A stretch of DNA of 64,000 bases. It comes from an uncultured Bacteroides sp. Its GTDB lineage: Bacteria > Bacteroidota > Bacteroidia > Bacteroidales > GCA-2748055. Location of the stretch: the NCBI GenBank assembly GCA_964575865.1, contig CAZNSZ010000007.1, forward strand, positions 18,931-82,930. The letters are read 5' to 3'. Below are positions 5,692 through 36,903 of this stretch, piece after piece. How positions within the stretch are numbered: position 1 is the stretch's first letter; each line of letters begins with the position of its first letter. Below the pieces are notes generated by a model. The model saw nothing but the letters and a program-made list of their open reading frames with translations. It was not told the DNA's origin and searched no databases. Position numbers and translations under genes: made by a program.

Positions 5692-5790
5692 GGGTAATGT
5701 AGATTGGTTCTAAATCAAATAAAATGTTCATTCAAGTTAAACTTTATTTTACGAAATTCATCCAACCCTCGTGTGAGATTTCCGCGGTAC

Positions 5791-8130
5791 ATGAATACCC
5801 GATACCCCCTGCGCCAGAAGCTGCTGATCCCGAAAAGGGACCTGGCCGGCCTGGCCATCATTGTCGCCGGATTGCTTCATGCGGCCATGCTTTCCGGGCA
5901 GCCTTCCCCGGAGCATCAGCAACAGCCGCTTGCGATACATGAAAAGCCCGGGCAGCAACTGCCGATGCAGAATGAACCGCTGACTTATTACATCGTACAG
6001 ACGACCGGGGAGATCCGGATCGACGGCCGGCTGACCGAGCCCGTATGGCAGGAAGCCCGGGTTGCGGAACATTTCTGGATGAGTTTTCCGGTGGATGACC
6101 GGAGGGTGGAGGATCCGCTGCGCACAGAGGTCCGTTTGGTGTCTGACCGGGAAAACCTCTACATCGCTGCAATCTGCTACGGATCGCCCGATTATGTGAT
6201 CAAGACCCTGAAGAGGGACAAGGAGTTCGAGGAGGGCGATGGTTTCGGGGTGGTGATCGATCCGGTGAATGAACGTACCAACGGATTTACCTTCGCGGTG
6301 AATCCTGCAGGGGTGCAGACCGAATACCTGATCACCGGACAGACCGGGCGCCGTCAGGCGCTGGAGCCGGGCCGCCTTCCCCAGGGGGTCAACATCGCAT
6401 GGGACAACCGGTGGTATTCGGAAGTGACCAACCATGAGGACCACTGGGTGGCTGAAATAGCGATCCCGTTTAAATCCCTGCGGTTCGAGGCCGGAAAGCA
6501 AAGCTGGGGCATCAATTTTTTCAGGCTGGATGCGGGGAGCAACAGCATCCATACCTGGGCTCCTGTCCCCATTGAGTTCAAGGAGATCGACCTGGGATAT
6601 ACGGGCCAGCTGGTGTGGGAAGATCCGCCTGAGAAGACCCGGGGAAACGTGGCCATCATTCCCTACGTGAAGGGATCGGTGGCCAGGGATTTTGAAGCAG
6701 GGACCGGTCCGGCGTATGATTTTCAGCCGGGTGTGGACGCCAAGGTGCCGGTCACCTCAAGCCTCAACCTCGACCTGACGGTCAATCCTGACTTTTCGCA
6801 GGTGGAGGTGGACCAGCAGGTGCTCAACCTGACCCTGTTCGATATCCGGCTTCCGGAGAAACGCCTGTTTTTCCTGGAGAACAGTGATATATTCGAGGAT
6901 TTCGGCATCCCCCCCATGCGGCCGTTTTTCTCGCGCCGCATCGGACTGGACGAGGAGGGGAACGCGATCCCGATCCTTTACGGCGCCCGCCTCAGCGGCA
7001 ACGTGAACAAGGACCTGCGCATCGGGCTGATGAACCTGCAGACCAGGGAGACCGATCTGTTCCTCTCCCAGAATTATACGGTGGCTTCCTTCCACCAGCA
7101 GGTGCTTGCCCGATCCGTGATCAAGGGATATTTCCACAACCGCGAAGCCATCGGGAATGAAGATCCCGATTACAACCGGAACATGGGACTCGAGTTTCAG
7201 TACCGTTCCGGGGATGGCCGTTTCCAAAGCTTCGCAGGGTACTCCAAATCATTCACGCCCGGTATGAAGCAGAAAGATTACTTCTACAATGTGGGGATCG
7301 GATATGACAACAGGAACCTCAGCCTTTACACCAATCTGGCGGGACTGGGTGAGAATTACCGGGCCGACCTGGGATACATCAGGGGTCAGGAGTATTATGA
7401 CGCCAGCCGTGACACCTCGGTATATGTGGGGCTTCACCACAGCCATTCGAGGGCTTTCTATACCCATTATGCGGAGGACAGTGAGAAGATCCTTTCGCAC
7501 GAGTTCGGCGCCAGGCAAACCTTCGATGTGGATACGGACCTCTCCCTGCTGCTCAGTGAGACGGAACTGAGCTACACCCTTGTCTTTACCTCCACCAGCC
7601 GGCTGCAGGGTTCCTTCGGTTACAACGTGGTCAACCTGCTGTATCCCTTCACTTTCCTTGACACAGAACCCCTGCCTGCGGGAATCTACCGGTACAGCCT
7701 GGGGGAGGTGCGCTACGAATCGGATCAGCGCCGTCTGCTCAGTTTCAAGGCCGGGGTATCTTACGGTGGATTCTACAACGGGACCAGGGCTCAGTACATG
7801 GCCGAGGTCAGGTTCAGGGCACAGCCCTGGGGTAGCTTCTCTATCAACTTCGAGCAGAACGACCTCCGGTTCCCTGAACCTTACGGGACCGGCAACCTGC
7901 TCCTCATCGGACCGCGGATCGAGATCAACTTTTCAAGGGCGCTTTTCTGGACCACCTTCCTCCAATACAATACCCAGGAGGATAATTTTAACATCAATTC
8001 CAGGTTCCAGTGGCGTTTTGCCCCCATGTCCGACCTCTATGTGGTGTACACCGACAATTATGCGGTGGAGTTCTGGGGCCCCAAACACCGTGCACTGGTC
8101 CTGAAACTGAATTACTGGTTCAATTTCTGA
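5791..8130 (+). CDS. CBM9-like / DUF5916 outer-membrane protein
   Basis: IDGRLTEPVW sugar-binding-like N-domain, LDLTVNPDFSQVEVD motif, alternating beta-strands ending LNYWFNF. Start moved from ORF-track 5704 to ATG 5791. Confidence 0.75.
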   Translation: MNTRYPLRQKLLIPKRDLAGLAIIVAGLLHAAMLSGQPSPEHQQQPLAIHEKPGQQLPMQNEPLTYYIVQTTGEIRIDGRLTEPVWQEARVAEHFWMSFPVDDRRVEDPLRTEVRLVSDRENLYIAAICYGSPDYVIKTLKRDKEFEEGDGFGVVIDPVNERTNGFTFAVNPAGVQTEYLITGQTGRRQALEPGRLPQGVNIAWDNRWYSEVTNHEDHWVAEIAIPFKSLRFEAGKQSWGINFFRLDAGSNSIHTWAPVPIEFKEIDLGYTGQLVWEDPPEKTRGNVAIIPYVKGSVARDFEAGTGPAYDFQPGVDAKVPVTSSLNLDLTVNPDFSQVEVDQQVLNLTLFDIRLPEKRLFFLENSDIFEDFGIPPMRPFFSRRIGLDEEGNAIPILYGARLSGNVNKDLRIGLMNLQTRETDLFLSQNYTVASFHQQVLARSVIKGYFHNREAIGNEDPDYNRNMGLEFQYRSGDGRFQSFAGYSKSFTPGMKQKDYFYNVGIGYDNRNLSLYTNLAGLGENYRADLGYIRGQEYYDASRDTSVYVGLHHSHSRAFYTHYAEDSEKILSHEFGARQTFDVDTDLSLLLSETELSYTLVFTSTSRLQGSFGYNVVNLLYPFTFLDTEPLPAGIYRYSLGEVRYESDQRRLLSFKAGVSYGGFYNGTRAQYMAEVRFRAQPWGSFSINFEQNDLRFPEPYGTGNLLLIGPRIEINFSRALFWTTFLQYNTQEDNFNINSRFQWRFAPMSDLYVVYTDNYAVEFWGPKHRALVLKLNYWFNF

Positions 8131-22724: not shown

Positions 22725-24165
22725 CAACGCACCCCTGCTGGAGGTCGGAATTATGCACAGCGATGCCATCCGGTTCCGGCTGGAGGGGAATTTCCACCTA
22801 AAGGAAGGGGGGACGAGAAAGGCGCCTGGATCCACGCTCCACGGAGGATCCACGCTCAACGGAGGATCCACGCTCCACGGAGGATCCGCCCTCACCGGAG
22901 AAGCCACGGCTGTGCTGCATGGTGGTACCATCCGGATCAAAGCGGACGACCGGACCCTGGCGGAAGGGGAGGAGCTTCTGCTTGAACCTGCCGATCCGGC
23001 CACGTGCCGTTTCATCCTGCAGGAAGTGGTCATCGGAGTGGGGTTCCACTGGGAGCAGAAGGAGCAACAGGTGTTCAGGGGAGCGCTCAGGTTCATGGTC
23101 AGCCAGGGGAACCTCCAGGCGGTCAATATCATCCCGCTGGAGGAGTACCTGGTCAGCGTCATCTCCTCTGAGATGAGGGGGGACAGCTCCCCGGAGCTGC
23201 TGAAGGCGCACACGATCATCTCCCGCAGCTGGCTGCTGGCACAGATGGAGAAACAGCAATCGCTCAGGAAGGCCGGGAAAGCCGGCAACCTGCAGCCGGC
23301 CGGATCCTCACGCGGCCCTGGCCTGCAGGGGGAGGAGGAACACATCCGCTGGTATGACCGGGAGGATCACCACGATTTTCATGTATGTGCCGACGATCAC
23401 TGTCAGCGGTACCAGGGCATCACCAGGGCGGGCAGGCCCCGGGTGGAGCAGGCGGTGAGGGAGACCGCCGGGCAGGTGCTGGTCTACGGGGGAGGCCTTT
23501 GCGACGCCAGGTATTCCAAATGTTGCGGGGGCGTCAGCGAGACCTTTGAATCCTGCTGGGAACCGGTGGCGCATCCATACCTCCGGCGGGTGGACGACAA
23601 TCCGGCCGGTCACCCTGTCAATACCGCGGACCTGACCCGGGAGACCCATGCGGAGGCCTTCATCCGGGAATCCCCGGAGGCCTTCTGCAATACTTCCGAT
23701 GCCAGGCTCCTCCGGCAGGTGCTGAACGATTACGACCAGGTTTCGGCCGATTTTTACAGGTGGGAGGTACACTACAGCCAGGAAGAACTGGCCATGCTGA
23801 TCAGGGAAAAATCGGGATCGGACTTCGGGCATATCCTCGACCTGGTTCCCGTGGAAAGGGGGGTGTCCGGCCGGCTGATCAGGCTGAGGATCGTCGGGAG
23901 CCTGAAGGAACTGGTCATTGGCAAGGAGCTGGAGATCAGGCGGTGGCTCAGCCGGTCACACCTCTACAGTTCGGCATTCGTGGTGAAGAAGTCCGCAGTC
24001 CGGGACGGTATTCCCGGTCGTTTCACCCTCCGGGGCGCCGGCTGGGGGCACGGGGTGGGGCTCTGTCAGATCGGTGCGGCGGTGATGGCGGACCGGGGGT
24101 ACACCTACCGGCAGATCCTGGAACACTATTTTCGAGGGACCAAACTGGAAAAAAGATATGAATAA
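22714..24165 (+). CDS. SpoIID/LytB domain protein (putative lytic transglycosylase)
   Basis: LEEYLVSVISSEM, LKAHTIISRSW, VCADDHCQRYQG, GAGWGHGVGLCQIGA. Confidence 0.9.
   Translation: MPSDNAPLLEVGIMHSDAIRFRLEGNFHLKEGGTRKAPGSTLHGGSTLNGGSTLHGGSALTGEATAVLHGGTIRIKADDRTLAEGEELLLEPADPATCRFILQEVVIGVGFHWEQKEQQVFRGALRFMVSQGNLQAVNIIPLEEYLVSVISSEMRGDSSPELLKAHTIISRSWLLAQMEKQQSLRKAGKAGNLQPAGSSRGPGLQGEEEHIRWYDREDHHDFHVCADDHCQRYQGITRAGRPRVEQAVRETAGQVLVYGGGLCDARYSKCCGGVSETFESCWEPVAHPYLRRVDDNPAGHPVNTADLTRETHAEAFIRESPEAFCNTSDARLLRQVLNDYDQVSADFYRWEVHYSQEELAMLIREKSGSDFGHILDLVPVERGVSGRLIRLRIVGSLKELVIGKELEIRRWLSRSHLYSSAFVVKKSAVRDGIPGRFTLRGAGWGHGVGLCQIGAAVMADRGYTYRQILEHYFRGTKLEKRYE
22828..22899 (+). repeat. In-frame 18-bp tandem repeat x4 (GGATCCACGCTCCACGGA) encoding GSTLHG-like units
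   Basis: Units start at 22828, 22846, 22864 and 22882 with 0, 1, 0 and 3 mismatches to the consensus. Confidence 0.95.
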
Positions 24166-25951
24166 CAGCGGTTCAAAGCCCCCGGGGGGCAGGAAACAGG
24201 CGGGGCCCTGGCTGTGGGTCCCCAGCCTCTATTTCGCTGAAGGGATCCCCTATGTGATCGTCATGACCCTTTCGGTGATCTTTTATAAGCGGATGGGGAT
24301 CTCCAATACCGACATTGCCCTCTATACCAGCTGGCTTTACCTGCCATGGGTGATCAAGCCCCTGTGGGGTCCCGTGGTGGATATCCTCAAAACCAAGCGC
24401 TTCTGGATACTCATCATGCAATTGCTCATCGGGGCCGGGCTGGCCGGGGTGGCGCTGACCATCCCCGGCCCTCGTTTTTTTCAGCTTACCCTCGCCTTTT
24501 TCTGGCTGCTGGCCTTCAGTTCGGCCACCCATGACATTGCGGCGGACGGATTCTACATGCTGGGACTGTCCAGGCACGACCAGGCCTTCTTCGTGGGGAT
24601 CAGGAGCACATTTTACCGGCTGGCCATGCTCACCGGTCAGGGTTTGCTGGTGATCCTCGCCGGGTATTTCGAGGCCCGCACCGGACTTCCGAAGGTGGAG
24701 GTGGAGGTGGTCACGGAGGAAGGACGCTCCGACCTGGATTTTCAGCCGCTCAGGATGACCTTCTCCGCCGATACGGGGTCCACCTATTTCCTCCATCCGG
24801 AAACCGTGCGGATCGGACTGGGGAAAATCCCCGCCGCAAAGGCCGACAGCCTGTTGGCCCTGGTGGATGCCTGGAACAGCGGGAACGGCTTTTACGATGC
24901 GGGGGAGGCGACCAGTTCGGCTTCTCCGGCGGGAGAAGCGGGGAACCTGGGCTGGACCTGGTTCCGGCTCAGCAAACCACCGGAGGCGGGGGAGAACATC
25001 GTCCTCAATTTCAGTTTCGAACGGGGGGACCAGAGCATTTCACTGGCCCGCAGCTACCGCTTCAATTTTAACCGGGACAACTGGGACCAGCCGGCTTTTG
25101 CCGTCTTCCGCCTCGACCCGAAACTCCAGAAGGATACTTCGGCCTCCTTCGCGGGACTGAGCGGAAACATCCGCTTTGCCTGGACCATGGTCTTTGTGGT
25201 CATTGCCGTGGTGTTTGCAGGATTCTTCGTCTATCACCGGTTTATCCTTCCACGGCCGGCGGAGGATGTGGCCGCCCGCCACACGGAAGGCAGTTTTTTA
25301 AAGGAGTTTTTCGCCACCTTCGCTGAATTCTTCCGGAAAAAGAACATTGTGGTGATCCTCCTCTTTCTGCTGGTTTACCGGCTGGGGGAATCCCAGCTGG
25401 TGAAACTGGCCTCCCCCTTTCTGCTCGATTCCCGTGAAGCCAGCGGGCTGGGGCTCACCACCGGTGATCTGGGGCTGATCTACGGCACCATAGGGATCAT
25501 TGCCCTGTCGCTGGGAGGGATACTCGGGGGGATCGCCGCTTCGAGGAAAGGGCTCAAATACTGGCTCTGGTGGATGGTGGCGGCCATGAACCTGCCCAAC
25601 CTGGTCTACGTGTTCCTCTCCTATGCCATGCCCTCCTCCCTCTGGATCGTGGGGGCCTCGGTGGCGGTGGAGCAGTTCGGTTACGGATTCGGATTCACCG
25701 CCTATATGCTTTACATGATCTATGTGTCCGAAGGGAAACATAAGACAGCGCATTTCGCACTGACCACGGGATTCATGGCGCTGGGGATGATGCTGCCCGG
25801 CATGGTGAGCGGATGGCTCCAGGAGCAGATCGGGTACCAGCACTTTTTTATCTGGGTGATGATCTGTACCATCCCGGGCTTTGTACTGATACCGTTCCTG
25901 AGGATCGATCCCGCTTTCGGGAGGAAGCAGAAGAAGAATCCTGCACCATGA
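24158..25951 (+). CDS. ampG: AmpG-like MFS muropeptide transporter with a soluble insertion
   Basis: LYFAEGIPY, KPLWGPVVD, SATHDIAADGFY, QFGYGFGF; 597 aa, longer than a simple 12-TM MFS. Confidence 0.8.
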   Translation: MNNSGSKPPGGRKQAGPWLWVPSLYFAEGIPYVIVMTLSVIFYKRMGISNTDIALYTSWLYLPWVIKPLWGPVVDILKTKRFWILIMQLLIGAGLAGVALTIPGPRFFQLTLAFFWLLAFSSATHDIAADGFYMLGLSRHDQAFFVGIRSTFYRLAMLTGQGLLVILAGYFEARTGLPKVEVEVVTEEGRSDLDFQPLRMTFSADTGSTYFLHPETVRIGLGKIPAAKADSLLALVDAWNSGNGFYDAGEATSSASPAGEAGNLGWTWFRLSKPPEAGENIVLNFSFERGDQSISLARSYRFNFNRDNWDQPAFAVFRLDPKLQKDTSASFAGLSGNIRFAWTMVFVVIAVVFAGFFVYHRFILPRPAEDVAARHTEGSFLKEFFATFAEFFRKKNIVVILLFLLVYRLGESQLVKLASPFLLDSREASGLGLTTGDLGLIYGTIGIIALSLGGILGGIAASRKGLKYWLWWMVAAMNLPNLVYVFLSYAMPSSLWIVGASVAVEQFGYGFGFTAYMLYMIYVSEGKHKTAHFALTTGFMALGMMLPGMVSGWLQEQIGYQHFFIWVMICTIPGFVLIPFLRIDPAFGRKQKKNPAP

Positions 25952-25984: not shown

Positions 25985-26668
25985 TCAGGCTTCGTCCAGG
26001 ATCACTGCTGCGGCCAGCCGCACGGCCTTTTTTACAACTTCCGTGCAATGCCCGGTGGCATCGGCTTCCTGGAACTCCCTCAGTTCGTCCGGATCGGTGA
26101 GGTGGTAGCACCTGCCGAACTCCCCCTTCTGGATCTCATGGCACATGGTGCTTCCGAATTCTTTTTCAAAGGCGGTGCAGAACGCTCCGGCAGGGACCAG
26201 TGAGGCCCTGTAGGTATCCCAGTCGCTCAGCTGGTGTTGGTTCCTTCCGAATATCAGTCCCAAGGCCATCAGCGGGCCTGTGACGGCACCGCAGGTCTCC
26301 CCCCGTTCAGCAATCCCGGTGACCGGTGTCAGCGCCCTGATCACCTCTTCCCCGCCCAGCCCGAATTGCTCCTTCAGGGCCATGAAGCTGCTCTGTGCAC
26401 AATGGTGTGACAGGTTCATGTACCGTTCCACCTTCTGATCGAGGAGCTGCATTACCAGGTCCCTGGGGAGCTCCCGGCTGGCATCCAGTTCCCTTTGGAA
26501 CGAGATTTGAGGGTCTGGAGGAGGCCCTGCTTCCGGAGTGGAAGGCTCACCGGTACCACGGCCGTCTTCCGGGGAGGGTGTGCTGCGCACGCACCCTCCC
26601 GGAAAAACGCCCGCAACCATTGCCGCAACCAGGCGTTCCGCAAACCTGCGCCGGTTCATTGGTGCCAT
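25985..26668 (-). CDS. C-GCAxxG-C-C family putative redox protein with Tat-like signal
   Basis: MNRRRF signal; HCAQS, ETCGAVTG, TMCHEI, HCTEVV. Confidence 0.8.
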   Translation of the reverse strand: MAPMNRRRFAERLVAAMVAGVFPGGCVRSTPSPEDGRGTGEPSTPEAGPPPDPQISFQRELDASRELPRDLVMQLLDQKVERYMNLSHHCAQSSFMALKEQFGLGGEEVIRALTPVTGIAERGETCGAVTGPLMALGLIFGRNQHQLSDWDTYRASLVPAGAFCTAFEKEFGSTMCHEIQKGEFGRCYHLTDPDELREFQEADATGHCTEVVKKAVRLAAAVILDEA

Positions 26669-26675
26669 CTTTTAT

Positions 26676-27719
26676 TTACAGCAGGATCTGCCGGCAGTAC
26701 TCCCGGCAGGTTTTCACCTCTTTCACCGAGCTGGACCACGGTTTCACCTCATACTCCAGTTCGATGTCGCAATAGATGGGCCAGCCATTCTCCCGGACCA
26801 GCAGAAGGACCTCGCTGATGGGGGTCTCTCCCTGTCCCCACACCTGGTTGGCATTGGGCTCCACGGCATTGCCGGGTCCCGTCTTGTCCTTCAGGTGAAT
26901 GCTGACGATCTGGTCATGGTACTTCTCAATAAAGGCACACGGGTCTTTCCCGGTGGACCCGTAATAGTGGCCCGCATCAAAGTTGAGCCTGTTGGCGGGT
27001 GACAGGGCCAGCAGGCGGTCCACATCAAACCCCTCCTCGGCGAACTGGAAGTGGTTGTGGAAAATGGCCAGCATCCCGGCCCTTTCGGCAGCAGCCCCCA
27101 GGTTCCTGCAGTTCTCCTCGTTCAGCTCGGCGGTGATCCCGATGGCCCCCAGTTCCCGCGCCACCCGGAAGGAGTAATCAAGCTCCTCATCACTGCTTCC
27201 CGCGGTCCATTTGTAGATGTGGATGTTGACGCCCGCATCATTGAACTTCCTTCGCAGCTCCCGGTACTTCTCCATGATCCCGTCGGAATGTCGCCATGCC
27301 TCCAGGTCCTCCCGGTACTGTTCCAGTGCGGCCTGCTGCTCTTCGGTCAGTGCAGGCCTTCCGGACCTGCCTCCGGGAGGCGGGCCCATCCACCTCCTCG
27401 GTACAGGGTTTTCAGGAGCGCCCAGGTACTCTTCCACGCCTGTCCCCATGAGTTCCACGGAGCTGATGCCCGCATCCACGCATGCCTGAAGCACTGCGTC
27501 CACCCCGCCTTCAAGTCCCCGGAAACTGTAAGTGATGGTCCCGATCTGCACCCCGCCGTATCTTGAATCGGGCAGTGCCGGCGTTTCACCGGAATCTTCC
27601 GACGGAGCGGTTTCGCCTCCTGTTGAACAGGAGAGAAGCAGGGCCATGGCCAGGAAGGCCATGACCGCTCCCCGGACTGTGCGTCCGGGAATGTTGCATA
27701 AATGAGTTCGTTTTTTCAT
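26676..27719 (-). CDS. Sugar phosphate isomerase/epimerase (AP-endonuclease-2 TIM barrel) lipoprotein
   Basis: GTITYSFR, FHNH, LNFDAGHY, IHLKDK, DIELEY; LLSC lipobox. Start moved to ATG 27719. Confidence 0.85.
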   Translation of the reverse strand: MKKRTHLCNIPGRTVRGAVMAFLAMALLLSCSTGGETAPSEDSGETPALPDSRYGGVQIGTITYSFRGLEGGVDAVLQACVDAGISSVELMGTGVEEYLGAPENPVPRRWMGPPPGGRSGRPALTEEQQAALEQYREDLEAWRHSDGIMEKYRELRRKFNDAGVNIHIYKWTAGSSDEELDYSFRVARELGAIGITAELNEENCRNLGAAAERAGMLAIFHNHFQFAEEGFDVDRLLALSPANRLNFDAGHYYGSTGKDPCAFIEKYHDQIVSIHLKDKTGPGNAVEPNANQVWGQGETPISEVLLLVRENGWPIYCDIELEYEVKPWSSSVKEVKTCREYCRQILL

Positions 27720-27757
27720 AGGATCCCATTTAAAAATATACGCTTCTCCCATGAGCA

Positions 27758-29239
27758 CTACAGGCTCCATCCCTGCCTGTATTCGTAGTGGAAATATTGA
27801 TCCGCTTCCGGAAGGTTGGTGATCTTCATGTTCCCGGCATCATATTCCAGGGTTTTATTCACCTGCTGGGACATGACAGCGATGTTGGTCAGCAGCATGA
27901 TCTCGGTCAGTTTCGACGCGATCTCGAAATCGTTGGCCGCTTTCCTTCCTTCCTTGATGGCCTCGATGAAGTCCACATAGACGCTCTTCGGCCTGGGCAG
28001 CCACTGGTCGGGGGCCTTGAAGCCCGGATCCTGGGGGATCAGCTCGGGCATGGCCCCGTGGGTCCCGTGCATGAGCATCCCCTTGGTGCCGATGTAAAGC
28101 GCTTCGGCAAGCTGGCGGTCCGCTTCCAGCTGGGCCGGACGGAAGGGCTTGATCCCGCCGTCGCTCCAGGTGACCTTCACCGGGGGCATTCCGTCCCTGG
28201 CTGCGAATTCATACTGTACATTTTCGGCCTGCGGCAGGTAATCCAGCGTAAAGGGGGAGGTGGTGGCCTGGATTTTTACGGGCATGCCCAGCTTCAATGC
28301 CCAGATGGGGGCGTCGAAGGTATGGGCGCCCATGTCCCCCATGGCGCCGGTTCCGTAGTCCCAGAGCCCGCGCCATGCGAAATGCACCACGTCGGGGTGG
28401 TAGGGTTTCTCTGGAGCGGGACCGAGCCACAGGTCGTACTTGAGGTTGTCCGGAACGGGAACCCCCCCGGGCCTGGTCAGGGCGCCCTGGGCCCAGACGG
28501 GCCGGTTGGACCACATGTGGACCTCGGTCACATCGCCAATAACGCCTGACTGGATCCATTCCACCGTCTGCATGGTGCCCTCGATGTTGTGTCCCTGGTT
28601 CCCCATCTGGGTGACCAGGCCGGTCTTCTTGGCCAGGTCCCGCAGGAACCGTACCTCATGAATGGTCTTGGCCATGGGCTTCTCCACGAACACGTGCTTG
28701 CCCGCATTCATGGCGTAGGCGGCGATCACGGCATGGGTATGGTCGGGGGTCCCGATGACCACGGCATCCAGTTCTTTCTCCTTGTCGATCATTTCCCGGA
28801 AATCGTGGTATGCCTTGGCTTTGGGGTAACCTGCAAAGATGTGGCCCGCATACTCATGGTCCACGTCACACAGGGCATAGATGTTGGCATGTTTGAAGGT
28901 CTCCGGGCCTCCGGCATCGCCCATCTGGTTGGCAGCCATTTGCCTCGGGGGGCGGGGAGGGGTGAGCCCGGGCATGCGGTTCCAGCGCAACCCCGGCAGC
29001 ATCCCCCTTCTCTGGATGGGCACATCGGGGGTGGCGATGTTCTGGATGTCGCTTCCTCCCTGGTTGCCCAGCCCGATCCCGGCCACGTTCACCATGTCGC
29101 TGGGTGCGGTATATCCTTTTCCTCCCAGCACATGGCGGGGGACAATGGTGAATGCGACCGCCGCGGCCGTGGTTTTGCCGATGAAGTCCCTCCGGGAGAG
29201 ACCCGTTGGGGATTTTTTGTCAGTGTGTTGCTGTTTCAT
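27758..29239 (-). CDS. Tat-exported Gfo/Idh/MocA oxidoreductase
   Basis: LSRRDFI twin-arginine; GIGLG, TPDHTHA, HVFVEKP, GAMGDMGAHTFD. Confidence 0.9.
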   Translation of the reverse strand: MKQQHTDKKSPTGLSRRDFIGKTTAAAVAFTIVPRHVLGGKGYTAPSDMVNVAGIGLGNQGGSDIQNIATPDVPIQRRGMLPGLRWNRMPGLTPPRPPRQMAANQMGDAGGPETFKHANIYALCDVDHEYAGHIFAGYPKAKAYHDFREMIDKEKELDAVVIGTPDHTHAVIAAYAMNAGKHVFVEKPMAKTIHEVRFLRDLAKKTGLVTQMGNQGHNIEGTMQTVEWIQSGVIGDVTEVHMWSNRPVWAQGALTRPGGVPVPDNLKYDLWLGPAPEKPYHPDVVHFAWRGLWDYGTGAMGDMGAHTFDAPIWALKLGMPVKIQATTSPFTLDYLPQAENVQYEFAARDGMPPVKVTWSDGGIKPFRPAQLEADRQLAEALYIGTKGMLMHGTHGAMPELIPQDPGFKAPDQWLPRPKSVYVDFIEAIKEGRKAANDFEIASKLTEIMLLTNIAVMSQQVNKTLEYDAGNMKITNLPEADQYFHYEYRQGWSL

Positions 29240-29420
29240 GGATCAAATGGTTTTATGGTTCGAATGGGTAATAAGTTAGTCATGCTGAACGAATTTCTAT
29301 TGTTCCGCAGCTATAAAATGAATGGAAAAAATGAATTTCCACAAGAATGATCTTGCCCTGTTCACCTTTAGACTCCCCGTGGAGCCAAGGGTTTAAAGAT
29401 GCAGCCGGGGTGTGGAATCC

Positions 29421-32400
29421 CTACGGGGAATCGAATGAAAACACCCGCACACTGTCCCTGTTGAATCCCGCGATGATCAGCGAAGGCGCTCCGTCGATGC
29501 AGAGCAGCGATTCCACCATTCCCTGGAGGACGATCCCGCTCTCCGGAGGGGGCATCAGGACTGAAAGGGGATCCCCATCGCCGCTGGCCAGCAGGAATCC
29601 CTTGCTGGCATCGTAATACCCTGTGCTGATGTCGTAGGTATGGTCGTTGCCGGCCAGCAGGACATCAGGAAGCCCGTCATGGTTGAAATCCCTGACGATC
29701 ATTTTCTTAACCGGGGAGACCTGGGCCTCCCGGGGCAGGGGTTCCCATTCGAAGTTTCCATCCCTGTTCCAGAGGATCTGGCTCGAAGCGGTGTTGACAT
29801 GGAAGGTATAGTTGACCCTTTTCATCACCGTGGAGTCCATCATATCCTCAATGGTGGCATAACTGAAGGAAGTATAATCGGGATACTTTCTCACAAAATA
29901 CCGCGACTGCCCCGCCAGTTCATCCAGGTAGTTGATGGGATACTCCCGCATGGTGTTGTATTCATCCAGCCAGTATCCGGTTGAGATGGGATCCAGGGTG
30001 CCGTTCAGGTCCAGATCGAGCGCATAGATCCTGAGGGGGTACTGGTCGCTGATGGTAAACCGGTGGTTCTCTCCCAGGTTCCCCAGGATATAGTCGTCAT
30101 CCCCGTCCTGGTCGAAGTCCGCCGCACAGATGGAGTACCAGATCCCGTGCATTTGTTCGACCTCCGGAAATTCCTGGCTGGTGATCCTGTTGCCTCCGTC
30201 ATTTCTGAGCATGCTGATGGAATTCCATTCACGGGTAACGATCAGATCTTCCCACCCATCGGAATCGAAATCGCTCCATACGGCATCTGTGACCATCCCC
30301 AGGTTGAAACGGGTGGCGGACTCCTCCACAAAACGCCCGTTTTCATTGAACAGGATCCAGGAATCGTTGGCGAAAGGGAACATCCCGTGGGCGATCCGCG
30401 CCCCGATGAAGAGGTCCATGTCCCCGTCCCGGTCCATGTCGCAGGGCCTTACCACGGAAGCGGGGAAGGAGCCGACCGGGAGCTGTTCCCGGGTGAAACC
30501 ACCCTTGTTGTTGCGGTACAGGTAATGCATGTACTGGTCTTCGGGATACTCATACCCTCCGGCCAGGGCCACCACATCATTGTCGCCGTCACCGTCCACA
30601 TCCAGGATGGCAAAATCGGCTTCCGTATAAGATTTGTGGCCGCTCAGTCCACGAAATTCCCTTTCGGCATACCGTTCCCCGTTCCAGAGGAGAACGCGGG
30701 TGGGCAACAGGTTTGTCGCTCCAACAATCAGATCCGGGTGGCCGTCCCCGTCCAGGTCCCCCGATTGCATCCGCGGTCCCATCTGTGAGAACTTATGGGG
30801 AATGATGTTCTGTTTGAAATTGTAATCGATCAGGTCCTCTTCCTGGTGAAGGTAGGAAATCACCCCCGGTGCCCTCCTGAAAATGGATGCTGCCCGGCTG
30901 TCCGGGGGGAGAGGCAGTGGTGAGGTGCCTGTTTCTTCGGAGATCTCAACCATCCGGTCAGCTTCGACCGCTGTGATCAGGGTCGTGCGGTTTCCTGAGG
31001 GCCAGGTGATCCTCACAGAATCCACCAGTGTGTTTTCCCCCAGTCCGAAATGGACCACCGGATCCACCGAGGAGATGTACCCGCGGGAAAGGAACTGTTC
31101 ATGGTACTGATGGACCCCTCCGCTCCACAGATCGATCTTTGCCCCGAATGCATATGGATTGGTCTTCTTTCCGTTCAGTTTGATCCTCAAATAATGTCCC
31201 TGGTCCGGATGGTCCTCGATGGACCTGTTCCTGTAGAGGAAGGCCACATCGTTCAGGTTGTTGGTCACATAATCCAGGTCGCCGTCGTTGTCAAGGTCCG
31301 CGAATGCTGCACCGTAGGAGTAGGAGGGGATATACTCGAACCACTCCCCGTCCTGTTTTTTAATGAATTGAAGATTTCCCACATTTTCGTAGGAATGGTT
31401 GGGGACCCTCTGTGCCGGGGCCCTTTCGATCACATGGCGTGCATCTGCCACGCTCCCGTAGACCTCCACCTTGTAGCGGGTCCAGTCCTTGTCGGTCATA
31501 TCCACCGGATAGCCATTGGCGATGATCAGGTCTTTGTCCCCATCGTTGTCATAGTCGGCAAACAGGGGCGACCAGCTCCATTCACTGGCATAGATACCCA
31601 TCATCTGTCCCACCTCGCTGTAAGGGACCATCTCCCCTTCGACAAAACCATTGTGGAGGTGCAGCATATTTCTCAGGAACTGGTGTTCGTACCCGTATTT
31701 GGCGTCGTTGGTATAATAGATATAGCCGAATCCGTTGATGGTCTGTTTTCTCTTATACAGATATTCCGGAAACATATCCAGCGTGTACATGTCCCTGTTG
31801 CCGTCGTTGTTGATATCCGCCATGTCGTTCCCCATGGAGGATTTGGTCTGGTAGGACATATACCTGCTGATCTCGTTCCGGAAGGTGCCGTCTTTCTGAT
31901 TGATATAGAGCAGATCGTTGGATATGAAATCATTGGAAATATAGAGGTCCGGGTAACCGTCCCTGTTCACATCGCCCACTGCCAGCCCGAGACCGAATCC
32001 TTCATAGATAATCCCCGCATCAACCGTGACGTTTGTAAAGGTCCCGTCTCCGTTGTTCCTATACAGGTCATCATTACTGGCTGCAGTGCCGTCGTTGATC
32101 TTTGGCCTGTAGCTGGCAGACAGCCGGTCATTTACAAAGTTGTTGAGCAGGTAGAGGTCCAGGTCCCCGTCCAGGTCGTAGTCCAGAAAAGCCGCATGCA
32201 CGGTAAAGCTCTCATCTGCGATCCCGTACTGACCGGCCTCGTCCACATAGAAGGGTATTCCGTCTTCACCCGCTCCCCGGCAAACAAACAGCCGGTTCCT
32301 GTTCCGCACGCTGTCTTCATAGGCCGTACAGGTGAAGTAGAGGTCTTTCCATCCGTCCTGGTTGATATCCGTGAAGGTCACTCCGCTGTACCATTGCCCG

Positions 32401-32711
32401 TTATCGAGATCCTCGAACCTGTCAGAGATCTCTTCGAACTTGAAACCGCCCTTATTCAGGTAGATCCGGGGAGCGACCTGGTTTGCGGTAAACACCAGGT
32501 CCTGCAATCCGTCGTTATTGAGATCAAACACACCCACCCCTGCCCCGTTGTAGATGTACTCGAAATTGAGGACATGAAGGCTATCAGTCTCCTCCACCCG
32601 GTTGATAAAGGTAATCCCGGTCTGTTCGGGAGTCAGCAACTCAAAGCGGGGCTTCTGCCCGCACGAGGTGAGGAGAGCGGCCACGAGCAATGGGAAGGTG
32701 ATTTTTTGCAT
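29421..32711 (-). CDS. CRTAC1/ASPIC-UnbV type FG-GAP (VCBS) repeat lipoprotein
   Basis: LTSC lipobox; many DxDxDGxxD repeats; SRGYISSVDPVVHFGLG ASPIC-UnbV signature. Confidence 0.88.
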   Translation of the reverse strand: MQKITFPLLVAALLTSCGQKPRFELLTPEQTGITFINRVEETDSLHVLNFEYIYNGAGVGVFDLNNDGLQDLVFTANQVAPRIYLNKGGFKFEEISDRFEDLDNGQWYSGVTFTDINQDGWKDLYFTCTAYEDSVRNRNRLFVCRGAGEDGIPFYVDEAGQYGIADESFTVHAAFLDYDLDGDLDLYLLNNFVNDRLSASYRPKINDGTAASNDDLYRNNGDGTFTNVTVDAGIIYEGFGLGLAVGDVNRDGYPDLYISNDFISNDLLYINQKDGTFRNEISRYMSYQTKSSMGNDMADINNDGNRDMYTLDMFPEYLYKRKQTINGFGYIYYTNDAKYGYEHQFLRNMLHLHNGFVEGEMVPYSEVGQMMGIYASEWSWSPLFADYDNDGDKDLIIANGYPVDMTDKDWTRYKVEVYGSVADARHVIERAPAQRVPNHSYENVGNLQFIKKQDGEWFEYIPSYSYGAAFADLDNDGDLDYVTNNLNDVAFLYRNRSIEDHPDQGHYLRIKLNGKKTNPYAFGAKIDLWSGGVHQYHEQFLSRGYISSVDPVVHFGLGENTLVDSVRITWPSGNRTTLITAVEADRMVEISEETGTSPLPLPPDSRAASIFRRAPGVISYLHQEEDLIDYNFKQNIIPHKFSQMGPRMQSGDLDGDGHPDLIVGATNLLPTRVLLWNGERYAEREFRGLSGHKSYTEADFAILDVDGDGDNDVVALAGGYEYPEDQYMHYLYRNNKGGFTREQLPVGSFPASVVRPCDMDRDGDMDLFIGARIAHGMFPFANDSWILFNENGRFVEESATRFNLGMVTDAVWSDFDSDGWEDLIVTREWNSISMLRNDGGNRITSQEFPEVEQMHGIWYSICAADFDQDGDDDYILGNLGENHRFTISDQYPLRIYALDLDLNGTLDPISTGYWLDEYNTMREYPINYLDELAGQSRYFVRKYPDYTSFSYATIEDMMDSTVMKRVNYTFHVNTASSQILWNRDGNFEWEPLPREAQVSPVKKMIVRDFNHDGLPDVLLAGNDHTYDISTGYYDASKGFLLASGDGDPLSVLMPPPESGIVLQGMVESLLCIDGAPSLIIAGFNRDSVRVFSFDSP

Positions 32712-34956: not shown

Positions 34957-36903
34957 ATGGAGAAAGCCCGAAGAGGAATCATCCATCTGGTCATTATACT
35001 GGCATCTGGTCTTGTTCCTGCAGTTCTGATTCAGTTATCTCAGGGTGAGCCTGTAAACCGGTATTACCATATCAGGAATTTCAGGTACGGGAAAGATCCC
35101 TATGTGATCCGGTGCAACAGGGGGGATACGTTGCATTTCACTTTCTCATCCGACGATACCGGGCACTCTTTCTTCCTGGAAGAGTTTGACGTGGATGTGA
35201 AGGTAAGTCCGGCCAATAACGAGGTACTGGTATTCGGTGTGGAGGATCCTTCCGCCAGGCCATATGTCACTGAAGAGCTGGTGCTGGTGGCGGATTTCCA
35301 GGGGCCTGCCCGGTACCTGGTCTCAAAGAGCCATTACCGGTGCCACGTCTGGTGCGGACCCATGCATGCCTTTGAACAGGGGAAACTGGTGATCATGCCC
35401 AATACCCTGCTGAGCTTCAGCCTGGGAAGCCTGCTGGCGGTGATCGCCCTCTGGGTGTTTTCGTTGTTCAGAGCACCGGTGATCGAGGGCACATCCGGAA
35501 AGGAAGATCCGCGGGGGGCGGACCTGTTTTTAAAGTTCCCCTGGTTCCGGAGAGCAGCGCGTTCCAGGTGGCCCCAGGTAGTGTTGATGATCCTTGCCCT
35601 CTGTCTCATCTATGTGGTCATCATGACCTCCCTGTTCGGGACAAAAATGTCCGGCAGGAATCTCGGTGTCGTCCTGATGTGGATCGTCTGGCTGTTCCTG
35701 CTGATCGTTGTGATGACCCCCCTGGGAGGAAGGGTCTGGTGCACCATTTGTCCGCTCCCGCTCTTCGGGGACTGGATTCAGCGCGGATCCCTGTTCACCC
35801 CGAGGACGGGGAAAACGGGGAATTACAACAACCGTTTTGCAGGGCTGTCCCTAAAATGGCCGTCCGGGATGGATAACAACTGGCTGAGGGTAGTTATATT
35901 CCTATTGCTTGCCACTTTTTCAACCACCCTGGTGGCTTCCCCCAAGGTGTCGGGCTTTGTGCTATTGGCCCTTATCCTGGCGCCGACAGCCATGTCCATG
36001 GTATTTGAATTACGTGCCTTTTGTCGCTATGTCTGTCCCGTACACGCTTTCGTGGGACCGTTTTCCGGAATGAGCGTTGTCGCCCTCAGGAACCGGTCCC
36101 GGGAAGTATGTGAGCAGTGTAAACCACACTATTGCCAGAAGGGAAATGCGAGAGGGTGGGCGTGTCCTTACGGGCTCAATGTGGGGGAGATCAAAGAGAG
36201 CATGGATTGCGGCCTTTGCCTTGAATGCGTGCGCAGCTGCACCTATGAGAATGTTTCGATTTTTGCAAGGCCGTTTGCATCTGAACGGAAGGTGAGGCAT
36301 CCCAGTGACGGATGGCTGGTGATTGCCATTTTCACCATCGCCATTATCTATTCCATTCTCTACCTGGGCCCCTGGCCGGCCGTCCGGGATTATGTGAATA
36401 TCCTCGATAAGAAGAACTGGGACCTGTTCGGCGTATATGCCCTGTTTCTATGGGTGGCCGTGCTGGTGGTTGTTCCCGGGGTCATTTATCTGCTCACACT
36501 GGCAGGCAGGAACTGGTCCGGAATCAACATGAAAACATCCGAAGCATTCCTGGCCAATTCCGGTTCCCTGCTTCCCATGGGATTGTTCATGTGGATGTCC
36601 TTTGTGGTACCGATGCTGTTTGTGAATTTCACCTTCCTTCTGCAATCCCTCTCGGATCCGTTTGGCTGGGGTTGGGATTTTTTCGGCACCGCCAATACTC
36701 CCTGGCACCAGGTGCTTCCGGGTGCGATCCCCTGGATACAGGCTTTCCTGATGCTGATTGGTACGGGATTGAGCCTCAGGAACCTCAGGAGGAACTGGAG
36801 CGGTCAGGGAACAGAGAAAGGACAGTTGATGCGGGCAAGCCTGCCCATGGGGATTTTTATCGCCTCGGTCAGCGCAATGATGATCTTCTTCTTCACCAAT
36901 TAG
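34957..36903 (+). CDS. Cupredoxin (CuA-like) domain fused to a NapH/NosR-like polyferredoxin membrane protein
   Basis: GHSF and CHVWCGPMH; CTICP, CRYVCP, CEQC, ACPYG, CGLCLECVRSC; many TM helices. Confidence 0.78.
   Translation: MEKARRGIIHLVIILASGLVPAVLIQLSQGEPVNRYYHIRNFRYGKDPYVIRCNRGDTLHFTFSSDDTGHSFFLEEFDVDVKVSPANNEVLVFGVEDPSARPYVTEELVLVADFQGPARYLVSKSHYRCHVWCGPMHAFEQGKLVIMPNTLLSFSLGSLLAVIALWVFSLFRAPVIEGTSGKEDPRGADLFLKFPWFRRAARSRWPQVVLMILALCLIYVVIMTSLFGTKMSGRNLGVVLMWIVWLFLLIVVMTPLGGRVWCTICPLPLFGDWIQRGSLFTPRTGKTGNYNNRFAGLSLKWPSGMDNNWLRVVIFLLLATFSTTLVASPKVSGFVLLALILAPTAMSMVFELRAFCRYVCPVHAFVGPFSGMSVVALRNRSREVCEQCKPHYCQKGNARGWACPYGLNVGEIKESMDCGLCLECVRSCTYENVSIFARPFASERKVRHPSDGWLVIAIFTIAIIYSILYLGPWPAVRDYVNILDKKNWDLFGVYALFLWVAVLVVVPGVIYLLTLAGRNWSGINMKTSEAFLANSGSLLPMGLFMWMSFVVPMLFVNFTFLLQSLSDPFGWGWDFFGTANTPWHQVLPGAIPWIQAFLMLIGTGLSLRNLRRNWSGQGTEKGQLMRASLPMGIFIASVSAMMIFFFTN

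Follow-up and report, generated by a model that had tools for sequence, protein, structure and literature searches.

The window (the whole stretch of 64,000 nt that was analysed) carries three co-oriented ORFs on the minus strand. The first encodes a 493-aa Gfo/Idh/MocA oxidoreductase with a Tat signal (GFO; 27758..29239; recognised from Pfam, NCBIfam and PDB matches), the second a 347-aa xylose-isomerase-like TIM-barrel protein with a lipobox (TIM; 26676..27719; Pfam, Foldseek and synteny), and the third a 227-aa C-GCAxxG-C-C family protein with both a Tat signal and a lipobox (CGC; 25985..26668; PF09719 and TIGR01909). The intergenic gaps are 38 and 7 nt. The TIM ORF is open to an ATG at 27770, and its signal peptide begins at the ATG at 27719, to which the 38-nt gap is counted from the GFO stop; CGC starts 7 nt past the TIM stop. 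No plausible terminator was found in either gap. These coordinates confirm the three co-oriented genes and the gap sizes given in a first-pass annotation of this DNA. The annotation had also assigned Tat motifs to two of the proteins, as we find for GFO and CGC, and a lipobox to only one; a lipobox cysteine is present in two, TIM and CGC.

The next gene upstream of GFO, on the same strand, encodes a 1096-aa FG-GAP + ASPIC/UnbV (CRTAC1-type) propeller protein (29421..32711; Pfam FG-GAP_3 and UnbV_ASPIC). Sequence and synteny comparison places the upstream edge of a GFO(-TIM) segment, absent from relatives such as loci L011 and L013, in the 181-nt spacer between the two genes (29240..29420, minus strand). 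We found no sigma-70-like site in this spacer, which is uninformative for Bacteroidota. Convergent to CGC is an MFS/AmpG-like permease gene (24158..25951, plus strand; Pfam MFS_1), the final gene of a cell-wall operon. A gene for a Fer4_5-containing membrane protein (34957..36903, plus strand; Pfam Fer4_5) is divergent from the string FG-GAP / Fib_succ / ASPIC / GFO / TIM / CGC. About 20 kb from GFO-TIM lies a DUF5916/CBM9 protein gene (5704..8130, plus strand; Pfam; 69% identity to the L109 neighbour), whose orthologue is the usual upstream neighbour of the pair in congeners.

GFO belongs to the Gfo/Idh/MocA family, scoring 66.8 bits against PF01408 (cut-off 24) and 95.9 bits against the C2 domain PF19051 (cut-off 23.3). 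Its N-terminus reads SRRDF followed by a hydrophobic stretch and matches TIGR01409 (TAT_signal_seq) at 20.1 bits (cut-off 16.7). TatC is present in the genome, and both GFO and CGC are predicted to be exported as Tat substrates. GFO matches the dehydrogenase structures 8TDF/8TDH (E 1.8e-90), with the EKP (VEKP), R-P-x-W and G-D-M-x-x-H motifs aligned. For AL3, the residues reported to bind the sugar and to act in catalysis are an Arg and a Trp three positions apart, an Asp and a His four apart, and a Gln near the NAD. In GFO, R246-P-V-W249, D302-M-G-A-H306 and Q-M-G-N-Q-G align with the same 8tdf motifs and show little or no variation among 10 orthologues, so that it appears to carry the AL3/BT2158-type residues, on our inferred mapping to the published numbering. 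Judged by sequence, GFO and the AL3/BT2158 glycoside 3-dehydrogenases are paralogues. We rejected it as a member of the equivalog family itself (NCBIfam BT_2158_fam, NF058561); its score of 437.3 bits is under the 750-bit cut-off and is spread over two stretches, on either side of a ~47-aa insertion that interrupts the Rossmann domain at residues ~70-116. The genome has two true members of that family elsewhere (891 and 839 bits) and holds 34 GFO matches in all. Orthologues of the window's GFO, 70-88% identical, were found in 80 metagenome loci.

TIM passes PF01261 (AP_endonuc_2) marginally (31.5 bits; cut-off 31.1). Its AF2 model (pLDDT 85) has the (beta/alpha)8 fold, and together with the metal-ligand Glu/Asp/His residues this identifies it as a PF01261-type barrel; E89, H221-N-H223, D248, H251, H275, D318, E320 and E322 are invariant in 21 homologues. 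Its lipobox, LLLSC (L-L-S-C), fits the lipoprotein pattern [LVI][ASTG][GAS]C, and lipidation is predicted. Foldseek matched the model to sugar-isomerase TIM barrels; its 427 hits at E<=0.001 include 3lmz/3p6l at E 3e-12. The lyases AL1 (8tcd, E 1e-9) and BT1 (8tct, E 1.5e-9), which have a catalytic Glu and a Co2+ site, are found at ranks 18-22 and score no better than epimerases and C-glycoside deglycosidases. At the sequence level, phmmer against the PDB matched only 4kw2, 3p6l and 3lmz, and neither AL1 nor BT1. TIM is a candidate 3-keto-glycoside lyase/isomerase.

TIM directly follows GFO in 12/12 congeners and in 49 of 58 metagenome loci. The cluster order in congeners is DUF5916, GFO, TIM, GFO2 (a signal-less Gfo gene), GH32 and SDR; in the window's genome, GFO2-SDR-like genes are on another contig. 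GFO and TIM are a real, widespread conserved module, and appear to be a 3-keto-glycoside-type pair of dehydrogenase and lyase/isomerase. The 8TDF/8TDH and TIM-fold matches and these adjacency counts back the earlier description of the first two genes as a dehydrogenase/lyase-type pair.

The module resembles the 3-keto-glycoside pathway encoded by AL1-AL4 in Alistipes (Nasseri et al., 10.1101/2024.03.25.586180) and BT2156-BT2160 in Bacteroides thetaiotaomicron (Liu et al., PMC8121099). In both, a Tat-exported Gfo/Idh/MocA dehydrogenase is encoded beside an exported xylose-isomerase-like TIM-barrel enzyme; GFO shares the aligned RPxW and GDMxxH motifs, the AL1/BT1 lyase structures are among the fold matches of the TIM model, and the signal-less second Gfo follows in congeners, as do AL4/BT2159. 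Unlike in that pathway, GFO falls short of the family cut-off and carries the Rossmann insertion, TIM has no sequence similarity to AL1/BT1 detectable by phmmer, the window cluster has no DUF1080 hydratase/hydrolase (the genome has 21 DUF1080 matches), and the accompanying genes are different (GH32 and SDR in congeners, ASPIC and CGC in the window). Zymomonas mobilis GFOR is also a Tat-exported Gfo/Idh/MocA protein, with tightly bound NADP recycled by a second sugar (PMC8121099), although it has another C-terminal domain type, another substrate and no TIM partner. Only the Rossmann domain of GFO aligns with it (PDB 1ofg/1h6a; E ~2e-8). This GFO-TIM subfamily is distinct, extends from marine sediments to the human gut, and is a candidate for a new branch in the pathway of oxidative glycoside cleavage.

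CGC scores 73.1 bits against PF09719 (cut-off 27) and 49.2 bits against TIGR01909 (cut-off 47.4), and has the cysteine pattern of the C-GCAxxG-C-C family. In the literature we found only passing mentions of this family of putative redox-active proteins, and no function, cofactor or partner. Six conserved cysteines follow the lipid-anchor cysteine (C90, C126, C164, C176, C187 and C208), of which C90, C126, C176 and C208 are invariant in 24 CGC orthologues, while C164 and C187 are additional to the family pattern. The CGC subfamily further differs from the family in an invariant Tat motif, a lipobox cysteine and a ~60-aa linker, and in having the motif T-C-G-A-x-x-G rather than G-C-A-x-x-G. The signal reads RRRF with Cys26, and R6, R7, F9 and C26 are invariant in the 24 orthologues. 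The lipobox is P-G-G-C in the window and L-G-[GSA]-C in nearly all orthologues, and CGC is predicted to be lipidated. The orthologue at locus L074 scores 21.6 bits against Pfam TAT_signal, just under the 22.7-bit cut-off.

The AF2 model of CGC (pLDDT 74) has a single standout fold match, 1h21_A, the split-Soret cytochrome c of Desulfovibrio desulfuricans (PDB 1H21, 'a novel iron centre'), with Z 11.7 (the next chain reaches 5.7) and a Foldseek probability of 0.96. Residues 46-227 superpose on residues 8-190 of this chain with an rmsd of 4.8 Å over 146 residues and 15% identity; no sequence-level match to split-Soret cytochrome c was found. CGC is not itself such a cytochrome, as there is no CxxCH haem motif in its 227 aa and the resemblance of its model to 1h21 does not extend beyond the N-terminal part of that protein. 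We infer that it probably binds a metal or Fe-S centre. This large, uncharacterised subfamily now has a predicted cellular address (Tat plus lipid anchor), a structural lead and a reproducible genomic partner (ASPIC/UnbV).

That partner, the ASPIC/UnbV propeller gene, is the recurrent conserved neighbour of CGC. At 44/60 orthologous loci, CGC directly adjoins an ASPIC-type gene, in three different architectures, and there are only 6 UnbV_ASPIC matches genome-wide. At L011 and L013, a 65%-identical ASPIC orthologue is followed by CGC and the convergent MFS gene, with neither GFO nor TIM. None of the 71 CGC-orthologue loci has a TIM gene. GFO occurs within 7 kb of CGC in six of them, which is the chance level, and is adjacent and co-oriented in only two, both from Planctomycetota; one of these (L074) has DUF362, GFO and CGC in that order, facing a ThuA/3-keto-disaccharide hydrolase gene and another GFO gene. 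Among the 58 metagenome GFO loci with room downstream, 4 have CGC and 54 do not. CGC is beside GFO-TIM in 0/12 congeners; the pair and CGC are on different contigs in all 12, including assemblies of 10-30 contigs. The data do not support CGC as part of the GFO-TIM unit as a general rule, and a conserved GFO + TIM + CGC operon beyond one lineage is rejected by its absence from the 12 congeners, the 71 CGC loci and 54/58 GFO loci. The first-pass annotation had treated the three genes as one unit and named co-occurrence as the check; the unit survives as the GFO-TIM pair without CGC, which is not conserved next to that pair but is consistently next to GFO in one clade.

In this clade of the CGC tree, GFO directly precedes CGC, 4-52 nt apart, at each of the five loci whose context is known. 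A weakly supported branch (SH-aLRT 69.8) sets off a group of 24 sequences containing all five, and outside this group 45/45 Bacteroidales loci of known context lack GFO. The full trio occurs only in the window and at L185; L149, L151 and L192 have GFO-CGC without TIM (gaps of 4, 4 and 52 nt), and L151 also lacks the ASPIC gene. That GFO-CGC adjacency outlasts the loss or absence of TIM and ASPIC hints at selection for keeping GFO and CGC together. The GFO tree does not group the CGC-context copies into a single well-supported clade. GFO-CGC loci are always at the same chromosomal site, with the MFS/AmpG-like permease as synteny anchor; it is convergent to CGC in L011, L013, L015, L018-L033 and others, as well as in the GFO-adjacent L149, L151 and L185. 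At L150 and L151, the Fer4_5 gene immediately precedes GFO-CGC and is encoded on the other strand. The arrangement is kept across loci whose GFO is 76-88% and CGC 68-76% identical to the window's.

From the gene order, signals, family assignments and conservation counts documented here, we think it probable that the region represents two older units joined in one lineage of uncultured Bacteroidales. One would be a periplasmic two-gene 3-keto-glycoside module, in which GFO, exported folded via Tat with tightly bound NAD, would oxidise a presumed glycoside substrate at C3, and the metal-dependent exported TIM would act next on the keto-sugar by elimination or isomerisation. The NAD on GFO would most likely be regenerated by reducing the keto-sugar product (ping-pong), so GFO would need no protein electron acceptor. 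The other unit would consist of the ASPIC/UnbV propeller and the Tat-exported, lipid-anchored CGC. GFO, with or without TIM, would have come between the propeller gene and the CGC gene, if we read the direction of the rearrangement correctly, and the genes at the joined locus are probably co-transcribed. Against this reading speak the persistence of GFO-CGC adjacency within the one clade, the lack of a single well-supported clade of CGC-context copies in the GFO tree, the GFO and ThuA genes beside CGC in Planctomycetota and Verrucomicrobiota, and the correlated presence of TIM and CGC within the genus (counts below).

Cofactor recycling of this kind has a reported precedent. The Tat-exported Gfo protein AL3, which accompanies the exported TIM-barrel lyase AL1, is reported to have bound NAD, to be unaffected by added NAD(P)(H), and to recycle its cofactor via 3-ketoglucose (10.1101/2024.03.25.586180); the same has been proposed for BT2158 (PMC8121099). 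Periplasmic reoxidation of Tat-exported, NAD-bound sugar dehydrogenases is an acknowledged question, for which an "as yet unidentified sugar" (PMC8121099) and "specialized proteins, such as cytochromes" (Nasseri preprint, 10.1101/2024.03.25.586180) have been invoked. A conserved redox partner would have been a real advance. Our data indicate that CGC is not a general redox partner of such dehydrogenases, a result that saves work and directs attention to the keto-sugar ping-pong route.

It is possible, though rather doubtful, that CGC instead has a general role in the periplasm as a redox carrier or maturation factor. It would then be an Fe-S or thiol protein with a lipid anchor, connected to a membrane Fer4/cupredoxin protein and serving the adjacent exported enzyme (ASPIC/UnbV in most Bacteroidales, Gfo in some lineages). 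The invariant Tat signal would fit cofactor insertion before export, but the cofactor is putative and the fold match comes from a predicted model with a pLDDT of 74. CGC's neighbours vary by lineage and are mostly exported enzymes (ASPIC, GFO and ThuA, the last convergent to CGC in two Verrucomicrobiota loci); however, those in Cytophagales/Verrucomicrobiota are sulfatases, MFS transporters or periplasmic binding proteins. The Fer4_5 gene is divergent to the operon in the window and directly beside GFO-CGC in L151, yet only 1/71 CGC loci has it within 7 kb, albeit with short flanks. A more specific proposal, which we regard as improbable, is that CGC is a small periplasmic Fe-S carrier with a split-Soret-N-terminal-like fold, linking exported enzymes without an evident outlet for electrons to a Fer4/cupredoxin conduit in the membrane. 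These enzymes would be CRTAC1-type ASPIC/UnbV propellers in most Bacteroidales, and Tat-Gfo dehydrogenases in Planctomycetota and some other lineages. If true, this would be the first defined role for the C-GCAxxG-C-C family and a protein route for reoxidising periplasmic sugar dehydrogenases.

The first-pass annotation had suggested that CGC reoxidises, or takes electrons from, GFO, which would make it a dedicated electron acceptor and the three genes one functional unit. We consider this distinctly unlikely. The gaps are tight, both in the window and between GFO and CGC at L149 and L151 (4 nt each), and the one clade is GFO-adjacent at 5/5 loci, but TIM is dispensable in 3/5 of these linked loci and occurs in 0/71 CGC loci. 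CGC follows Tat-GFO genes at L074 and L077 (both Planctomycetota), although GFO is near CGC only at chance frequency, in a genome with 34 GFO matches; GFO-TIM and CGC are separated in every congener, and CGC is missing from 54/58 GFO loci. In favour, too, the fold resembles the part of a split-Soret cytochrome whose entry title names an iron centre. Against the proposal, NAD(P)H donates hydride, and the known transfers from NAD(P)H to Fe-S centres or disulfides use a flavin. Pfam detected no flavin domain in GFO or CGC, and without a flavin, an Fe-S or thiol protein is unlikely to reoxidise bound NAD(P)H. GFOR, GH109 and AL3/BT2158 work redox-neutrally, and GFO's characterised relatives are thought to recycle their cofactor on the keto-sugar, as in the two-unit reading that we prefer.

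Plain juxtaposition of three independent exported genes after rearrangement, without shared transcription or function, is highly improbable; the genome is rearranged relative to congeners (DUF5916 and the GFO2-SDR-like genes being elsewhere) and dense in GFO and DUF1080 matches, but the 7- and 38-nt gaps are too small for a terminator and promoter, and the arrangement persists across the diverged loci. Among the genus genomes, 12 have both a TIM orthologue and CGC, 2 have TIM only, 4 have CGC only and 6 have neither, a correlation with a one-sided Fisher value of ~0.03 (hand-computed and uncorrected for kinship).

All three genes lie on the minus strand: a Gfo/Idh/MocA gene with a Tat signal (GFO, 29239..27758), an exported TIM-barrel gene (TIM, 27719..26676) and a gene for a C-GCAxxG-C-C Cys protein (CGC, 26668..25985). 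The ORFs bear out the co-orientation and the gaps noted in the first-pass annotation (38 nt for GFO-TIM and 7 nt for TIM-CGC). GFO encodes 493 aa with GFO_IDH_MocA and C2 domains, and its Tat signal scores above the TIGR01409 cut-off. TIM encodes 347 aa, with a narrow match to AP_endonuc_2 (31.5 bits; cut-off 31.1) and the lipobox LLLSC, while the 227-aa product of CGC matches C_GCAxxG_C_C at 73 bits, passes TIGR01909, and has a twin-arginine motif as well as a lipobox Cys. Hence the two Tat motifs reported earlier stand (GFO and CGC) but the single lipobox does not, as both TIM and CGC carry one. An alternative TIM start (ATG at 27770, 51 nt upstream of 27719) would overlap GFO by 13 nt; we favour 27719, judging by the orthologue alignment and the signal peptide. 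TatC is encoded in the same genome. Next upstream of GFO is a 1096-aa FG-GAP plus ASPIC/UnbV propeller gene of the CRTAC1 type (ASPIC, 29421..32711, minus strand), and downstream of CGC lies a convergent MFS/AmpG-like gene, the terminal gene of a cell-wall operon. The promoter and terminator scan, which models sigma-70 and not Bacteroidota promoters, is uninformative for the trio.

We consider it probable that this arrangement fuses, in one lineage, two older units. GFO and TIM would form a redox-neutral periplasmic module acting on 3-keto-glycosides, the ASPIC propeller and the CGC protein would form the second unit, and the joined genes are probably co-transcribed in the window.

The first two genes are a real pair of dehydrogenase and TIM-barrel protein, as had been claimed. 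A GFO orthologue (79-87% identity) lies directly upstream of the TIM orthologue (62-72%) in 12/12 same-genus genomes having TIM. A metagenome scan with the GFO alignment gave 80 loci (70-88% identity). Downstream sequence of 1.2 kb or more is available for 58 of these, and in 49 of the 58 a TIM homologue directly follows GFO. The closest solved structures to GFO are two Gfo-type dehydrogenases, 8TDF (E 1.8e-90) and 8TDH (E 1.8e-87), whose accession codes neighbour the entries of the Alistipes and Bacteroides thetaiotaomicron 3-keto-glycoside pathway lyases (AL1/BT1) and of the P2B11 glucuronide 3-dehydrogenase. Aligned with 8TDF (the Alistipes dehydrogenase AL3), GFO keeps VEKP, Q-M-G-N-Q-G, R-P-x-W and G-D-M-x-x-H. 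Unlike AL3, it has a Pro/Arg/Gly-rich insertion of ~47 residues (residues ~70-116, about 28892-29032 in the window) after the GxGxxG strand and before the next Rossmann strand, which is conserved in all close orthologues and takes another form in the L118 paralogue. Against the NCBIfam BT_2158 equivalog, GFO scores 437 bits (cut-off 750) and two other genes of the genome score 891 and 839, which makes GFO a paralogue of the B. thetaiotaomicron dehydrogenase BT2158, not its orthologue. The GFO tree is not used to infer evolutionary direction, since its rooting on L118, a branch of length 7.3, cannot be relied on.

TIM is modelled (pLDDT 85) as a xylose-isomerase-like barrel and has eight invariant candidate metal or catalytic residues. 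Foldseek matches the model to the AL1/BT1 3-keto-glucoside 1,2-lyases, C-glycoside deglycosidases and sugar epimerases at E values from 1e-9 to 1e-12, so the fold singles out no reaction. In a published system, a Tat-exported Gfo protein with bound NAD works with an exported TIM-barrel lyase, added NAD(P)(H) has no effect, and the cofactor is recycled via the 3-keto-sugar (bioRxiv 10.1101/2024.03.25.586180); the same recycling has been proposed for BT2158 (PMC8121099). The GFO-TIM pair fits this picture and represents a novel subfamily within a known type. The 49 loci include a clade from human-gut and other metagenomes (L189, L198 and L199; GFO orthologues of 74-78% identity) in which the partner TIM has its own Tat signal, beside a lipobox in L189 and L199 (e.g. 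SRREFLG...FSC), and an ~880-aa gene precedes the otherwise isolated pair.

In same-genus genomes and many sediment metagenomes (L104-L113, L152-L179), the usual order is DUF5916/CBM9, sometimes a sulfatase, Tat-Gfo, exported TIM, a signal-less second Gfo (Gfo2), GH32 and SDR, a gene content that suggests an oxidative pathway for glycosides of the sucrose or fructan type. In the genome of the window, 20 kb separate the DUF5916 orthologue (5704..8130) from the trio, and the Gfo2- and SDR-like genes are on a separate contig. In this 4.7 Mb genome, the Gfo-type BT_2158 model has 34 matches and the model for 3-keto-disaccharide hydrolases (DUF1080) has 21, among them neighbouring Gfo and DUF1080 genes in the canonical arrangement on contigs C28 and C103; going by these counts, the organism is heavily invested in oxidative glycoside cleavage.

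CGC usually has other neighbours. In the genome-collection scan, CGC orthologues of 41-62% identity turned up at 71 loci, in Bacteroidota, Verrucomicrobiota, Planctomycetota and one Myxococcota record, with genes in high-GC PVC loci (e.g. L070, L077) assigned by GC3 and phmmer. None of the 71 carries TIM, and a Gfo gene of any kind lies within 7 kb in six, about what chance would give for one Gfo gene per ~140 kb. Where the CGC ORF was callable, an FG-GAP_3 plus UnbV_ASPIC gene immediately adjoins it in 44/60 loci (L011-L053). Three arrangements of this neighbour occur, each tracking its own subclade of the CGC tree: a co-oriented upstream gene of ~1100 aa, a divergent upstream gene of ~1200 aa with TPR repeats, and a co-oriented downstream gene of ~560 aa. 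As the window's genome has only six UnbV_ASPIC matches, chance adjacency is negligible. Two of the loci (L011 and L013) have ASPIC and CGC followed by the convergent MFS gene at the window's chromosomal site, with neither GFO nor TIM. In Cytophagales and Verrucomicrobiota, CGC neighbours include sulfatase, MFS and periplasmic binding protein genes. A third kind of neighbourhood occurs in the Verrucomicrobiota MAGs L065, L066 and L068, where a Peripla_BP_6 gene is directly upstream of CGC (8-nt gap in L065, which has a second such gene downstream). In one same-genus genome, the CGC orthologue (L145, G020:C4:44011-44499) contains an in-frame TAA, its open frame is only 157 aa long, and it may be a pseudogene.

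The linkage of GFO to CGC is confined to one lineage. It is not unique to the window's genome, since the metagenome scan found GFO directly upstream of CGC in four further loci. L185 reads ASPIC-GFO-TIM-CGC with the convergent MFS gene; L149 has ASPIC-GFO-CGC without TIM (4-nt gap); L151 has GFO-CGC after a divergent Fer4 gene, without ASPIC or TIM (4-nt gap); and L192 has GFO-CGC with a 52-nt gap. All share one chromosomal site wherever the downstream flank is present (the L192 contig ends before it). In the CGC tree, these four and the window fall among 24 sequences set apart from the rest by a single, weakly supported branch (SH-aLRT 69.8), and GFO is missing from all 45 Bacteroidales loci of known context outside it, so one origin is enough. 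For the clade of the closest CGC homologues (P0001-P0020, 63-91% identity), context is known at only 5 loci. Still, GFO and CGC have stayed adjacent where TIM or ASPIC is lost or absent, and inertia by itself would not predict as much.

The three genes together are a variant specific to one lineage. Of the single unit first described, the GFO-TIM pair holds, but the membership of CGC is not supported as a general rule: in twelve same-genus genomes that encode the pair, the CGC orthologue is on a separate contig every time, even in assemblies of 10-30 contigs. Within the genus, the presence of TIM and CGC is positively correlated (12 genomes with both, 2 with TIM only, 4 with CGC only, 6 with neither), but this carries little weight because the genomes are kin.

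As for the CGC protein itself, R6, R7, F9 and C26 are invariant in 24 orthologues, as are C90, C126, C164, C176, C187 and C208. Sequence searches of the PDB, by profile and with a canonical paralogue, returned only a chance match to a designed binder (E 0.98), and the ESM Atlas only other C_GCAxxG_C_C clusters (scores 0.84-0.85). Its AF2 model (pLDDT 74) is helical over residues 52-227, and the one fold match that stands out is to split-Soret cytochrome c (1H21, entry title "a novel iron centre"), over its ~180 N-terminal residues. This likeness rests on VIA-align Z (11.7; next chain 5.7) and Foldseek probability (0.96), as no Foldseek match to the PDB reached E<=0.001. Unlike the cytochrome, the CGC protein has no CxxCH haem motif, and only the N-terminal part of 1H21 is matched. 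In a 2003 paper on the cytochrome, the iron centre is reportedly a [2Fe-2S] cluster bound by Cys. The fold likeness and the invariant Tat signal, which would suit cofactor loading in the cytoplasm, point to a metal or Fe-S centre but do not establish one. The term C_GCAxxG_C_C was in no title or abstract found, and one paper has the family as a table row only; the ASPIC association, Tat-lipoprotein nature and split-Soret-like fold of this subfamily were not found in the little literature mentioning it.

It is conceivable, though rather unlikely, that the CGC protein is a shared periplasmic carrier serving different exported enzymes, a role that would also connect it with the Fer4/cupredoxin membrane gene nearby. 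The original proposal, an electron acceptor for the dehydrogenase, is quite improbable: the adjacency is real in the window and four loci but is not conserved outside one clade, and a hydride donor would have to deliver, without a flavin, to a one-electron or thiol acceptor.

CGC also occurs among putative 3-keto-sugar genes outside Bacteroidota. Gfo- and ThuA-type families are very abundant in Planctomycetota and Verrucomicrobiota, so these cases are taken as a lead only. One Planctomycetota MAG (L074:3216-10634) encodes, in this order, a Tat-DUF362 protein, a Gfo protein and a Tat C-GCAxxG-C-C protein, facing first a ThuA gene fused to a 3-keto-disaccharide hydrolase and then a Gfo gene; it is a second, distant case of CGC among such genes. 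The related L077 has DUF362, ~1.9 kb without annotation, and then two Tat-GFO genes ~1 kb upstream of CGC, and ThuA is convergent to CGC in two Verrucomicrobiota loci.
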